From contig CAZWEM010000020.1 of the NCBI GenBank assembly GCA_964632315.1, positions 1-64,000 of the forward strand: 64,000 nucleotides of DNA, read 5' to 3'. Positions within the stretch are counted from its first letter, which is position 1, and every line of letters starts with the position of its first letter. Source of the stretch: an uncultured archaeon. Lineage in GTDB: Archaea; Asgardarchaeota; Lokiarchaeia; Sigyniarchaeales; SOKP01. The notes under the pieces were generated by a model, which was not told the origin of the DNA, made no database searches, and saw only the letters and a list, made by a program, of their open reading frames with translations. A program made the position numbers and the translations under genes. Shown here piece by piece: positions 37,865 through 43,615 of the stretch.

Positions 37865-40152
37865 TTCCTATATACCTCTTTGAAATTATCCATTATTTCA
37901 AAATTACATTTTCTCCCCCAATATTTAAAATTAAAAACGTGGTATAAATCTCCTTTAAATGATTCCCGCTCTTTTTCTGTAAGTTGATGAATCAATGTTA
38001 ATGAAACTGGTCTCGGTATTAGGGGTGAATAATATTTTAACTTTTTATTCCTGAGATATTCTAAATAACTCTCACCAATTTTAGGTTTGAAAATCTCTAA
38101 CGGTTCAAATTTATCATTTGTTGGCGTTAATAAATTTAGTTCATTTTCAATTTTATCAAAGATATATCTAGGGAATTCCTTCGAAATTCCTTGACAAAAA
38201 TCATACTTTTGATAGAATTCTAAAAAGGCAACTTTAGAAGATTCTTCAGAATTTTTCGCAATATATAAATCTAAAAACTTCAAAAATGACTCAATTTCTT
38301 GTTCTTTACTCTCTCTAGTTTCTAAATAATTCAAAAAATCATAAAAGATCTCGTTTAATTTCCAAGATTTATGTTCCTCCATATTAAAGAATTTTTTAGC
38401 ATAATCCTTAATCCAGTCTAGGATATACTCTTTCCAATCTAGTTTAATTCCGCCAACTCGTTTTTCTAAAAAGCGATAAAATTTATTGGAGAATGTCACA
38501 GGGTCACTAATCTCATTTTCGGGATTTTCTTTTAGAAATCTATTAATTGTGCTATATCGTAGGATATAACTAAGTAGAAAGTGTAATTCAGCTGAGAAAT
38601 TTTTAAACTTCTCGATATGCTCTTTAATTAAGGTAGAATCGGATTCCATCTGAATTTCTGCAAATGAAACTAAATCGCTTATAGTCAGATTGACACTTTT
38701 AAAATAGTCAGAAACATTATTTCTTATAATTTGTTTAAATTCGTTAATTATAACTGAATCATTATATTCGCTATATTTTTCAGATAAAAGCGGGCTTTTT
38801 TCAATTTCACTGCTAATGAATGATTCAAAACCTTCTATAATTTTTTTACCCAAAATCATTGCTGGTTTTTGTTCTTGATTTATTTTTCCTTCTAAATTTA
38901 AAATAAGTCGATTAAATAATCTTTTCAGTCTTAATCTTGAAAGATAAATTGGAAGAAACTTTTGTATTAATTTAAACGTACTACTAATTAATTCAGAAAA
39001 ATATTGAAATGGTGAATTTAGATCACTACTTCTCAAAGGGTCAGAATCCTTATGGACAAAATCTTTAATCAATTCAACGGCTATATCACAAAAATCATAA
39101 TAGAAATCATCTCCTTCAAACGTATCTAGAATGTTCTTCCTGTAATCAATTAAAAGTTCATTTAAAGGCTCTAATAGACCTGAATAGGTGAATTCTTGCG
39201 ATACTTTCAAAAAAAGTGAAAATTTTTTTTCAAATTCAGTTAAAAGCTTCGAGTATTCAGATATAATCCATTCTGTATCCTTACTTTCATTGATTAAATT
39301 GAACCTATTCTCAACGCGATTGAAAATAAAAAGCACTATTTTTTCTTGAGATTCCTCAGTAGTTCCTATATTTGCTAATTCCATTAAATTAGTTCCAAGT
39401 TCTAAGGTTTTAGTAGCAACATAGTTTGCAGATGGAGGGGAAATTGAATAACTTAGATGATCTATCGATGCTTGTTCTTCGAGAGGATTCGGTAACTTTT
39501 TATATTTAGAATTCCGGAAGGAAATCTGAACTGGTTTTTTATCCCAAGCGTATCCTACATCCGAACTCACTGAACTAAAGCTATCTAACATCTTCTTTTC
39601 TGTTGGTATAGAGGCACTTACACCTATTAATTTTTTATTCCACTTATCTTCAAGCATTTCACCAAATAATTTCAAACTAAACCTAGATGCAAACCGCTGA
39701 AGAATAGCCTTGCTATCATCCTTAGATAGTTCTGGATGGTTCGAAAATTCTTCAACGTCAAAAAATAACTTGCTGATCTCATCAATTGATTCTTTCGATT
39801 TATGAATATTTAAAATTCCAGTTTCAGGTTTCAATGCAAGGAATAAACTCTCACAATCCTTAAAAGAACCCGGAGTTAGTATCATTGATTTTGGATAAAT
39901 CTTAAGAGAGGAATCTTTTGGATCAAAATTAAATAATTCAAATTCAATGCTATATAACTCTGACCCAGTATAATCTCTTAAAATAGCATTAAACATTCTA
40001 AGATATAAAATAACCTCCTTCGAAAGATTATTCACTTTTTCTTTTGTTAATTTTCCTGGACCGATTACATCACCTACGACAATATTATTTGGAGATGAAT
40101 ATCCAAAAATTAACGAAAATTGATAGTTAATAGATTCTCTAGTTGTTATCAT
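37846..40152 (-). CDS. Large hypothetical protein (alpha/beta N-terminus, helical body)
   Basis: 768-aa ORF; no motif recognised. Confidence 0.75.
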   Translation of the reverse strand: MITTRESINYQFSLIFGYSSPNNIVVGDVIGPGKLTKEKVNNLSKEVILYLRMFNAILRDYTGSELYSIEFELFNFDPKDSSLKIYPKSMILTPGSFKDCESLFLALKPETGILNIHKSKESIDEISKLFFDVEEFSNHPELSKDDSKAILQRFASRFSLKLFGEMLEDKWNKKLIGVSASIPTEKKMLDSFSSVSSDVGYAWDKKPVQISFRNSKYKKLPNPLEEQASIDHLSYSISPPSANYVATKTLELGTNLMELANIGTTEESQEKIVLFIFNRVENRFNLINESKDTEWIISEYSKLLTEFEKKFSLFLKVSQEFTYSGLLEPLNELLIDYRKNILDTFEGDDFYYDFCDIAVELIKDFVHKDSDPLRSSDLNSPFQYFSELISSTFKLIQKFLPIYLSRLRLKRLFNRLILNLEGKINQEQKPAMILGKKIIEGFESFISSEIEKSPLLSEKYSEYNDSVIINEFKQIIRNNVSDYFKSVNLTISDLVSFAEIQMESDSTLIKEHIEKFKNFSAELHFLLSYILRYSTINRFLKENPENEISDPVTFSNKFYRFLEKRVGGIKLDWKEYILDWIKDYAKKFFNMEEHKSWKLNEIFYDFLNYLETRESKEQEIESFLKFLDLYIAKNSEESSKVAFLEFYQKYDFCQGISKEFPRYIFDKIENELNLLTPTNDKFEPLEIFKPKIGESYLEYLRNKKLKYYSPLIPRPVSLTLIHQLTEKERESFKGDLYHVFNFKYWGRKCNFEIMDNFKEVYRKWLREK

Positions 40153-40363
40153 GATGTATCATTTTATTATTGAATTCTATAATGAAGAATAGCGAAAAAC
40201 GGTTAGAAAATTTAAATAATTTATAGAAGATAATATATTAAAATTTAAGCTGATCATAAGCGCTTTGTTAATATAAAAAAATAAAAACATAAAAGAGAAT
40301 ATTTTTATATTAAATTATAAAGCAATCTTCTTATAAAATAAAAATAGAAAATGGTGAAATAGT

Positions 40364-40768
40364 TTGGAATTCGGCTCAGATCTGGGAATTACTAGTGCTG
40401 ATATAGAAAAGATTAGTCCTCAAATTACATTCATAACTTCAAATGCTGATATCGAAGCTATTGCATTGGTCTCTCAGGAGGGATATCAGATCGCCTTTTC
40501 CGCCCTTCCACAGTACAAAGTAGATGGTGATCAATTCTGTGGTTTAGCTAGCGCCTTATTGATGACAGGAAGCTCCACGATACAAACATTATTTCAAGAA
40601 GATTTGAGTGAAATCATTGTTAGGGCAGAAAATGGATACATAATTGTAAGTAATGCTGGTAGATTGGTAATCGTCTGCGCTGGGACCGTAATAGATACTT
40701 TAATGAAGACTGTGAAGGTTATGAGGATTGCTGCAAAAAATTTAGGCAAGATTTTCCAAGGGAGATAA
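40364..40768 (+). CDS. Roadblock/LC7 domain protein
   Basis: IEAIALVSQEGYQIA, CGLASALL..G, LSEIIVRAENGYIIV; GGTGA SD before TTG. Confidence 0.88.
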   Translation: MEFGSDLGITSADIEKISPQITFITSNADIEAIALVSQEGYQIAFSALPQYKVDGDQFCGLASALLMTGSSTIQTLFQEDLSEIIVRAENGYIIVSNAGRLVIVCAGTVIDTLMKTVKVMRIAAKNLGKIFQGR

Positions 40769-40870
40769 ATCTATTCTCTTTCTCATTGATAATTAGACAA
40801 ATGATCATTATCCATAAATTTATAAATTAACTTATTTTCTCCTTCTTTAACTTTTAGATGGTTTTTAAAT

Positions 40871-40924
40871 ATGACTGCCCAAAAAGAAGCTTTTTTAGGT
40901 TGGCAGTGGCAATGGTGCCTTTAG
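40871..40924 (+). CDS. Putative Trp-rich leader peptide MTAQKEAFLGWQWQWCL (trpL-like)
   Basis: ATG...TAG ORF of 17 codons with TGG at 40901, 40907 and 40913, 143 nt upstream of trpB2. Confidence 0.7.
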   Translation: MTAQKEAFLGWQWQWCL

Positions 40925-40951
40925 AGCACTTTTGCATCAGTATAAACCATT

Positions 40952-40971
40952 AGAGATTTGAATCTTTTTTT
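40952..40971 (+). terminator. Hairpin plus T7 tract in the trpB2 leader (candidate attenuator terminator)
   Basis: AGAGAT-TTGA-ATCTTT followed by T run 40965-40971. Confidence 0.5.
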
Positions 40972-41067
40972 CTAAATTTGTTGTTTTAAGCCTAATGCTT
41001 TTTATCTTTGATCTCCAAAAATGAAAAGAGACATAATTAAAAATTAAAAAAATAAAGTGAAAAAATT

Positions 41068-42471
41068 ATGCAGAATGAATTAGATGCTAGAATCCTTTTA
41101 GCACCAAATGAAGTTCCAAAAAATTGGATAAATATCTTACCTGATCTACCAAAGCCTATGACACCAATGATAAATCCAATGGATGGTCTACCAGCTCCTC
41201 CTGAACTTGCGTTTATGATCTTTCCAAGGGAATGCGTTATGCAAGAAGTATCGCAGGAACATTATATTGAAATACCTAAAGATCTAAGAGAAATATATGC
41301 AAGAACATACCGTCCCACACCTTTACATCGTGCTTATGCTTTAGAAAAGGAACTAGGATTATTAGATGGAAACATAAAAATTTTTTTTAAAAATGAATCT
41401 GTTTCTCCTACCGGTTCTCACAAACCAAATACGGCTTTAGCTCAGGCTTATTATGCCAAAAAAGATGGAATAAAAGAACTAGTAACTGAGACTGGGGCGG
41501 GGCAATGGGGTTCTGCCTTATCTTATGGCTGCAATTTATTTGATATTAATTGTATTGTATATATGGTAAGAGCAAGTTATTATCAAAAACCAGGAAGAAA
41601 AATTTTAATGAAAGCGTATAATGCCGAAGTTTTTCCGAGTCCATCTCAGAATACTAGTGCTGGAAGGCAATATTTTGAATCTAATCCAGATCATCCTGGA
41701 AGTTTAGGTATCGCTATTTCAGAAGCAGTAGAACATAGTTTAACTAATGATAATGCAAGATATTCATTAGGTAGTGTGGTAAATTTTGTCTGCTTGCATC
41801 AAACTGTGATTGGTCAAGAGTGCAAGATTCAGCTAAGTAAAGTGGGAATAGAAGAGCCAGATATAATAATTGGTTGTATGGGAGGGGGCTCAAACTTTAT
41901 GGGATTAGCTCTTCCATTTATTAAGGATAAACTAGATGGAAAGCTCCCTAATACCGAGTTTATTGGTGTAGAGCCTAGGGCGTGCCCGAGTGTTTGTAAA
42001 GGGCAATATCGATGGGATTATGGGGATTCTGCTAAAAAAGCTCCAATATTAAAAATGTTCACACTGGGTCATAATTTCGTCCCAAATCCAATACATGCCG
42101 GAGGATTAAGATATCACGGAATAGCTCCTATTGTCTCGAATTTAGTAAGCAACAAGCTAATGAAATCATCGATGCATTATCAAACTGAGGTCATCGAATC
42201 AGGACTCCAGTTTGCTAGAACAGAGGGCATTTTACCTGCTCCAGAGACATGTCATGCTATTAAAGAAGCTATAGATCAAGCACTTTTAGCAAAAGAAAAC
42301 AATGAAAAAAAGGTTATTGTTTTCAATTTTAGTGGTCATGGATTTTTCGATATCTCGGCATACGAAGAATATATGGAAGGAAATTTAACCGATTTTGAAT
42401 TACCTACCGAAGAAATAGAAAAAGCTTTAAATTCGAACGATATGCCGTTGATAGATGAATCAAAATTTTAA
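41068..42471 (+). CDS. trpB2: Tryptophan synthase beta chain-like protein TrpB2
   Basis: RPTPL.RA..LE, GSHKPNTA, TETGAGQWG, GGGSNF, HAGGLRYHG, FNFSGHG. Confidence 0.95.
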   Translation: MQNELDARILLAPNEVPKNWINILPDLPKPMTPMINPMDGLPAPPELAFMIFPRECVMQEVSQEHYIEIPKDLREIYARTYRPTPLHRAYALEKELGLLDGNIKIFFKNESVSPTGSHKPNTALAQAYYAKKDGIKELVTETGAGQWGSALSYGCNLFDINCIVYMVRASYYQKPGRKILMKAYNAEVFPSPSQNTSAGRQYFESNPDHPGSLGIAISEAVEHSLTNDNARYSLGSVVNFVCLHQTVIGQECKIQLSKVGIEEPDIIIGCMGGGSNFMGLALPFIKDKLDGKLPNTEFIGVEPRACPSVCKGQYRWDYGDSAKKAPILKMFTLGHNFVPNPIHAGGLRYHGIAPIVSNLVSNKLMKSSMHYQTEVIESGLQFARTEGILPAPETCHAIKEAIDQALLAKENNEKKVIVFNFSGHGFFDISAYEEYMEGNLTDFELPTEEIEKALNSNDMPLIDESKF

Positions 42472-42529
42472 TTATCTTATTTTTCTTATTTTAATTCAAG
42501 AGTTTTTTTTGGAAAAGGCTTAATTATTT

Positions 42530-43615
42530 ATGGATTACTTTTCGATCATCTTCATTATTATTCTATATATTTATGGAATCCTTTTAATGTACATTACTTT
42601 AATTTCAAAAAAAAAGGGGGAAATTCAAGCATTCTATAACAATTTATTCATTTCTTTAGTTTTCATCGGAAGTTTAACACTAAATTTAATAAACATATAT
42701 ATCATAAGAGATACAAATATAGATCTTATCATTTTCCCTTTCAATTTAGCGGTAATCATATTTCTTATCATTTATTTACCGATACTTTATCTCTCAGTAA
42801 ATCGTGAGAAAAGTAAGCAGATGTATAAAAACGGTTCATGGAAGAAATATTATCTTACAACTTTAAGACAACTTCCCTTAAAGTATGAACTATATAGGAA
42901 ATCGACTCATTTAGTTGTTTTAGCGATTGTATTTTTTTATTTTACTCTTGGTTTCTGGGTAGAAAATGTTTTTGTCTACTTATTTAGATTGTCCCCACCA
43001 TTTATCTCTGATATATTTTTTTCGTTATATAATTCTGAAGGGAATAAAATGGTTTTTACCCAATATTTAGTTGTTTTTCTTGTCAGTCTTTCATTAATAG
43101 GATTGATCTCCGTTGATGCCTTAAGAATCTTAAGACCTGACTGGTATCCTCTTAAACCTGTGAATTTAATATTGAGAGAAAAGGAGATAAGTACTCGCTT
43201 AGGCCCTCACATTTCAATGGGGGTTGGTTGTTTTTCAATCATTATTACTTTTGGAATATTTCAACCAATAGGGCCGCTATTAATATGTGTCTCTATGACA
43301 ATGGCAATATTTGGAGATATGGTAGCCAACTTATTAGGTAGGACTGTAGGAAAGCGAAAAATCAGAGATACATCAAAAACCTACGAGGGATTAATCTGGG
43401 GAATGATAAGTGCTTATCTTTCGGGTGTTTTATGTCTTCTTTTACTTAATACGTTTTACCATATCTCAATAATAGGATTAATTTTTATCCCTTTAATCGG
43501 TTCAATTATTATTGGATTCCTCGACTATGCTGATTTAGAAATAGATGATAATTTAACATATAATGTTTTTGTATCCCTGATTCTCTTTCTCGTTTCTAAT
43601 ATTCTTATTTATTAA
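42530..43615 (+). CDS. Polyprenol/diacylglycerol kinase-like membrane protein (CTP_transf_1-type)
   Basis: RKSTH, LREKE, GDMVANLLG...KTYEG, DDNL. Confidence 0.8.
   Translation: MDYFSIIFIIILYIYGILLMYITLISKKKGEIQAFYNNLFISLVFIGSLTLNLINIYIIRDTNIDLIIFPFNLAVIIFLIIYLPILYLSVNREKSKQMYKNGSWKKYYLTTLRQLPLKYELYRKSTHLVVLAIVFFYFTLGFWVENVFVYLFRLSPPFISDIFFSLYNSEGNKMVFTQYLVVFLVSLSLIGLISVDALRILRPDWYPLKPVNLILREKEISTRLGPHISMGVGCFSIIITFGIFQPIGPLLICVSMTMAIFGDMVANLLGRTVGKRKIRDTSKTYEGLIWGMISAYLSGVLCLLLLNTFYHISIIGLIFIPLIGSIIIGFLDYADLEIDDNLTYNVFVSLILFLVSNILIY

Follow-up and report, generated by a model that had tools for sequence, protein, structure and literature searches.

A candidate tryptophan-sensing leader with a conserved Trp-codon ORF upstream of trpB2 in an Asgard archaeon

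In bacteria, leader-peptide attenuation is a textbook form of gene control, and it requires transcription and translation to be coupled. The bacterial pyrBI leader senses UTP-dependent pausing of RNA polymerase, the erm and cat leaders sense antibiotics and act on translation initiation rather than on termination, and TnaC, in which W12, D16 and P24 are conserved, senses free tryptophan and induces the catabolic tna operon through Rho. The known tryptophan control of archaeal trp genes is exerted by TrpY of Methanothermobacter, a DNA-binding repressor, and a literature search found no report of leader-peptide attenuation in archaea. Here, a Trp-codon leader was analysed in a 64,000-nucleotide stretch of DNA from an Asgard archaeon (hereafter, the window). 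The leader precedes trpB2, the only tryptophan-making gene found in this archaeon, as well as tryptophan genes in many relatives, and in its arrangement it looks like a bacterial ribosome-based attenuator. The region from 40819 to 40971 is proposed as a candidate cis-acting, tryptophan-sensing leader of trpB2, an assignment that we regard as reasonably probable. Asgard archaea are the closest prokaryotic relatives of eukaryotes, and a conserved, pathway-linked Trp leader in this group would be a concrete case of gene control based on coupling. Such a leader would also be a natural probe of the effects of RNA structure and ribosomes on archaeal termination, and it would mark trpB2 as a tryptophan-supply gene in organisms where searches did not recover the remainder of the pathway.

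The features of the locus are listed in Table 1. The leader ORF is located between a Roadblock/LC7 gene (40364-40768) and trpB2, and TGG accounts for three of its last seven codons. Re-reading of the window recovered every sequence feature named in the original prediction: a short ORF with clustered TGG codons, ending 143 nt before trpB2; a GC-enriched patch around it (G+C of 0.40-0.42 at 40860-40959 versus about 0.18-0.25 in the flanking DNA); and two hairpins, A and B, followed by a small terminal hairpin with a T7 run, all of which can be drawn in the RNA. The product of the downstream gene matched NF009057 (650 bits, cut-off 366), TIGR01415 (606 bits, cut-off 519) and the Pfam PALP family, and ARAGORN found no tRNA gene in the window (1-64000). 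Small ORFs with a clustered triple Trp are rare in this genome but not unique to the locus (30 cases among 101,303 small ORFs, all frames counted), and the fold of the leader region of the window alone showed no extra stability relative to shuffles (z = -1.16). As the fold is unremarkable and the triple-Trp ORF is not unique, the case rests on conservation of the leader, which is strong as judged from the sequences compared.

Table 1 Positions of the leader and associated features in the window (all on the forward strand)
Feature	Position	Strand	Details
Predicted archaeal TATA box	40819-40826	+	TTTATAAA; upstream of leader
Structured leader, whole (match to covariance model R1)	40856-40959	+	E = 1.1e-10
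P1, 5′ strand	40858-40864	+	ATGGTTT; 6 nt before start codon; pairs with 40944-40950
Leader ORF	40871-40924	+	ATG 40871, TAG 40922-40924; 17 codons plus stop; encodes MTAQKEAFLGWQWQWCL
Candidate helix P2 (hairpin A)	40874-40907	+	ACTGCC 40874-40879 / GGCAGT 40902-40907
Trp codons (TGG) of leader ORF	40901-40903, 40907-40909, 40913-40915	+	
P3 hairpin (hairpin B)	40910-40934	+	Core GGTGC 40914-40918 / GCACT 40926-40930; outer pairs 40910-40912 / 40932-40934
P1, 3′ strand	40944-40950	+	AAACCAT; pairs with 40858-40864
Small 4-bp hairpin (AGAT/ATCT) and T7 tract (40965-40971)	40954-40971	+	Candidate termination site
Candidate proximal trpB2 promoter	40998-41036	+	TATA-like TTTTTATC at 40999-41006 and block AAGAGACATAA
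trpB2, stand-alone TrpB-like PLP enzyme	41068-42471	+	467 aa; SD-like AAGTGA at 41055-41060

The trpB2 loci of relatives were collected, and a single rule was applied to 109 upstream regions from the phylum (Asgardarchaeota), in which an ORF of 10-50 codons was sought within 450 nt upstream and the Trp codons in its last 12 codons were counted. At least two tail Trp codons were found in 67 of the 109 regions and at least three in 48, compared with 4.3% and 0.33%, respectively, in the background set, which comprised the regions preceding 2,719 long ORFs of this genome. The conserved short ORF with clustered TGG codons that the original prediction proposed to look for upstream of Asgard trpB2 genes is present in many of them. 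The window's genus has the ORF in 27 of 31 regions under the 12-codon-tail rule, and the remaining four regions represent one subclade with two Trp codons farther from the stop, beyond the 12-codon tail. Most other genera of the family also have a Trp ORF, and tails such as TWPWH, FWPWQ, FPWAWRP and NWAWPRRE are seen in other families of the order. Convincing Trp leaders come from 17 genera, some of which belong to four families outside the order; the outside-order examples include small 1.4-Mb genomes in which a 46-codon ORF with a C-terminal WAWRWLLWP is separated from trpB2 by only about 70 nt. The ORF starts 190-250 nt 5′ of trpB2 across the family, and the number of Trp codons in the leaders of relatives ranges from 2 to 6. 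The Roadblock gene is kept as the upstream neighbour only within the family, whereas the association of the leader with trpB2 extends to other families. In one genome of the genus (G153), contig C50 carries a pair of trpB2 genes separated by 15 kb, both of them preceded by a leader (L097 and L098); the second leader is of the type found in a sister genus, which suggests that gene and leader were transferred or duplicated as a unit.

Several signs suggest that the ORF is coding. In the genus alignment, 18 rows start with ATG, three with GTG and one with TTG a codon further upstream. The spacing between the start and the first Trp codon in the genus is 24, 27, 30 or 45 nt; the ATG start and the frame are kept, and indels 5′ of the first Trp codon come in multiples of three. 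In 53 leaders of the family, the Trp frame opens with ATG in 43-46 cases, 8-10 codons 5′ of the first Trp codon, and ORF lengths cluster at 16-17 codons despite variable N-terminal sequence. As a control, an apparent ORF in frame +2 was obtained in 48 of the 53 leaders when TTG and GTG starts were allowed; because these ORFs start at TTG codons made by the UGG repeat and their ends are scattered, they were rejected as artefacts of permissive start codons. The elements UGGCCUUGG and UGGCAGUGG are conserved across families at the nucleotide level, and for UGGCCUUGG this could reflect a constraint on the RNA rather than on the codons. Leader peptides of the family (e.g. L036, L106 and L109) have tails such as WRWQWPWRWR, which we take to resemble Trp/Arg-rich antimicrobial peptides like indolicidin. 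These tails are probably a by-product of UGG and CGU codons in a GC-rich stem, and a secreted Trp/Arg-rich peptide was considered and set aside.

A covariance model (R1) was built from two helices of the leader, P1 and P3, and was used to align 64 leaders. The strands of P1 lie before the start codon and after the stop codon, so that P1 encloses the whole ORF, and the GGT in its 5′ strand may also serve as a weak Shine-Dalgarno-like element. P3 starts within the last Trp codon, with the stop codon in its loop and UUUU following at 40930-40933. P1 and P3 were 88% and 94% paired across the 64 leaders, versus 31-52% for slid controls, and 63 double-change cells were counted versus 17±5 in shuffles, with compensatory changes in P1 (GC/AU/GU) and several stem versions in P3; these values lean towards the structure, as the alignment was fitted to the structure of the model, and many of the genomes are closely related. 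Within the genus alignment, 83% pairing was obtained for this structure, versus 34-50% for slid controls. RNAalifold applied to the first genus alignment predicted only P3, and that weakly, and P1 appeared only once four divergent genus rows were removed. Of 66 leaders (17 genera) folded singly, nearly all showed a hairpin starting in the last Trp codon or no more than about 12 nt from it (mean z = -2.0), and in most of these leaders the stop codon falls 6-9 nt after the last UGG. The stems at the P3 position differ in sequence (GGCGUU/AACGCC, GGCAU/AUGCC, GUUGGC/GCCAAC and GGGUCC/GGACCC), and a second family has long stems of 12-14 bp there.

The original prediction looked to relatives for covarying stems around the Trp ORF, and these are provided by P1 and P3. 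Its hairpin B corresponds to the conserved P3, whereas its hairpin A (P2) stands on less firm ground, being 74-75% paired across leaders with one slid control as high as 62%. The competing pairing that it proposed as a switch (AATGGT 40911-40916 / ACCATT 40946-40951) is possible in the window but was found in no relative, and RNAalifold with the Trp region masked gave no conserved alternative helix or antiterminator, leaving that pairing unsupported. The strand at 40944-40950 pairs instead with 40858-40864 to form the covarying P1, a helix absent from the original prediction. An Rfam scan of 39500-42500 with E values up to 10 returned chance-level matches only and no relevant family (RF00513, T-box or other cis-regulators).

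A TATA-like octamer is present 28-36 nt 5′ of P1 in 58 of the 64 leaders (mostly TTTATAAG, and TATAAATA in trpD leaders), and no other upstream block is as well conserved in the genus alignment. The position of this box predicts a transcription start at about 40848-40856, before the ORF begins. P1 is followed by at least five consecutive T residues in 49 of the 64 leaders versus 41% of AT-rich background windows, a modest enrichment in AT-rich DNA. A bacterial sigma-70/terminator scan of the region found no terminator, a result that is uninformative for an archaeon, whose termination signals differ. Between the U-tract and the gene, the block AAGAGACATAA is kept in the genus and also in members of the family whose trpB2 has lost the leader. 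As this block, with its TATA-like sequence, survives leader loss, trpB2 may have a second, proximal promoter, and its placement suggests that transcripts from it would bypass the leader. In L010, L013, L015 and most other loci of the genus, the stretch that separates the U-tract from trpB2 contains a TATA-like ATTATTATAA with a palindrome on either side, CAATTGCA-n2-TGCAATTG (which is perfect) and ATTGG-n3-CCAAT. The palindromes are degenerate in the window at 40980-41020; they look like an operator around a proximal trpB2 promoter. In a distant family, three TGTACA repeats (L081, at ~370-410) and GTACA-type repeats (L082, at ~370-400) lie just 5′ of the leader TATA box. We take these to be similar to the TRP box, the operator bound by the archaeal TrpY repressor, and by analogy they hint at dual control by a repressor and a leader, as with TrpR and trpL in E. 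coli.

Model R1 gave a single match in this 4.45-Mb genome, and among 141 genomes of the order it matched in 71, all within the window's family. Matches away from trpB2 precede trpD-trpC-trpF, which encode anthranilate phosphoribosyltransferase, indole-3-glycerol-phosphate synthase (IGPS) and phosphoribosylanthranilate isomerase. Two genera of the family have lost the leader 5′ of trpB2 with the Roadblock-trpB2 synteny intact (L034, L049, L104, L108, L046 and L105), and in the same genomes it is present 5′ of trpD-trpC-trpF (L144-L147 and L137). At L038, remnants of P3 and of the block that follows it are still visible. The ORF, its Trp codons, P1, P3 and the U-tract are thus conserved, and the element is linked to trp genes. 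TrpA, IGPS and TrpE were searched for in this genome (99.5% complete) and none was found, TrpB2 being the only trp enzyme found among those searched; TrpB2 is therefore probably an indole-salvage enzyme that makes tryptophan from scavenged indole, and this search result fits an induction of TrpB2 in starvation. A gene for a 361-aa multi-pass membrane protein (42530-43615, forward strand) begins 58 nt after trpB2 and is found downstream of trpB2 genus-wide. This protein had no Pfam or NCBIfam match, and its GD..A..LGR..GK motif presumably recalls CDP-alcohol/dolichol kinase-type cytidylyltransferases.

On this comparative evidence, the element is probably a cis-acting Trp leader that is read by the ribosome. 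We infer that transcription from the predicted promoter about 45 nt 5′ of the ORF would produce a short structured RNA, the 17-codon ORF of which would be translated during RNA synthesis. When charged tRNA-Trp is scarce, the ribosome would wait at one of the three UGG codons and, as P3 starts inside the last UGG, would hold the 5′ strand of P3; P3, and hence the compact P1/P3 fold, would be blocked, and polymerase would pass the U-tracts (UUUU and the T7 tract) into trpB2. When tryptophan is plentiful, the ribosome would reach the stop codon in the P3 loop and depart, allowing P3 and P1 to fold and transcription to terminate at the U-tract. TrpB2 would be wanted in tryptophan shortage, and read-through on shortage is the direction that would fit biosynthetic genes. 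As no conserved antiterminator was found, the switch would need direct occlusion, which requires the terminating ribosome to be gone before polymerase passes the U-tract; we consider this particular form of the switch to be close to an even call, leaning slightly against. Archaeal termination relies mainly on oligo-T rather than on hairpins, which makes the role of P3 and P1 uncertain, and termination may also involve a factor, for example FttA/aCPSF1. More tentatively, the locus may represent ribosome-mediated amino-acid attenuation in Archaea that is old in the Asgard group, in which a ribosome waiting at UGG masks the stop-codon hairpin and no antiterminator takes part; in that joint reading, the masked hairpin would be needed for oligo-U or factor-assisted (FttA/aCPSF1) termination, an arrangement simpler than the bacterial switch.

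Other explanations of the locus were weighed against the same evidence. That the ORF arose by chance in a GC-richer intergenic patch is in keeping with the unremarkable fold of the window (z = -1.16) and with the ~3 in 10,000 small ORFs of this genome that show a triple-Trp cluster; its conservation in dozens of genomes and at two trp loci effectively refutes this explanation, and its likelihood is negligible. The RNA alone could be the functional unit, with the UGG repeats and helices binding a protein or tRNA-Trp directly, in a TRAP- or T-box-like manner, and the ORF incidental. The covariation of P1 and P3 and the cross-family conservation of UGGCCUUGG and UGGCAGUGG as nucleotides would be expected of such an element, but an incidental ORF would not explain why it keeps its ATG start and frame, changes length by multiples of three and retains a nearby stop codon, and no T-box or other Rfam family was matched in the scan of 39500-42500; the T-box-like and TRAP-like readings were set aside, and an RNA-only element is considered very improbable.

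Two further explanations accept a translated leader or a leader transcript but assign it another role. In a TnaC-like arrangement, the nascent peptide together with free tryptophan would stall the ribosome at or near the stop codon and block termination, so that tryptophan would induce the genes. The Trp residues are indeed 1-5 residues from the stop codon, and Pro, which slows termination when near a stop codon, recurs with Arg beside Trp in distant lineages (WPW, WRx-stop, WP-stop and RP-stop). Against this, the regulated genes (trpB2 and trpD-trpC-trpF) are biosynthetic, the W-x3-D-x7-P spacing and the Asp are absent from the leader peptides, and the varying Trp count, with other residues variable, suits the counting of codons better than a fixed arrest peptide; control of this kind is decidedly unlikely. 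The leader could also be an independent small transcript that is always terminated and acts in trans as an sRNA and/or a Trp/Arg-rich peptide, with trpB2 expressed from its proximal promoter. Bacterial attenuator products, rnTrpL and peTrpL, are known to act in trans (PMC7298713, PMC7968998) and offer a precedent, and both the TATA-like block at 40998-41036, which persists where the leader is lost, and the operator-typical palindromes that flank it in most members of the genus are in line with separate transcription of trpB2. A trans-acting transcript would not, however, account for the position of the element, which is always on the same strand and immediately 5′ of trp genes, in varied contexts and at two trp loci, with only about 70 nt between the ORF and trpB2 in the 1.4-Mb genomes, and the peptide is poorly conserved outside the Trp codons; an independent transcript is thus considered unlikely.

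Compared with known systems, the ribosome-read leader proposed here differs from TrpY control in being a candidate translated RNA leader, although two distant Asgard genomes have TGTACA operator-like repeats 5′ of the promoter that precedes the leader. It shares with TnaC a short Trp-containing leader peptide, candidate control of downstream termination by the ribosome, and Pro near the stop codon, and differs from it in lacking the W12/D16/P24 spacing and in preceding biosynthetic genes. It resembles trpL of E. coli and Salmonella (RF00513) in several ways: a short 5′-leader ORF is found before tryptophan genes, its cognate Trp codons are clustered late with a stop codon nearby, the regulatory codons are overlapped by hairpins, the first structural gene is preceded by a U-tract, and the element occurs at more than one trp locus, in association with the pathway across genomes. 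In contrast to trpL, the host is an archaeon, no match to RF00513 was obtained, and RNAalifold with the Trp region masked revealed no conserved, mutually exclusive antiterminator and terminator pairings. The Trp codons alternate (W-x-W-x-W) rather than stand in tandem as in trpL, a hairpin begins in the last Trp codon with the stop codon in its loop, a long-range helix surrounds the whole ORF, and termination would use the archaeal oligo-U signal, possibly with a factor. Of the trpL-type Trp attenuator originally predicted, the Trp-codon leader linked in cis to trpB2 is upheld by the comparative evidence and the proposed switch pairing is not. As in the E. coli pyrBI leader and in ermC/cat, a ribosome in the leader ORF would physically prevent a nearby hairpin from forming, with the difference that the candidate signal is an amino acid, and by this analogy ribosome occlusion without an antiterminator, of the pyrBI and ermC/cat type, best fits the layout of the leader.
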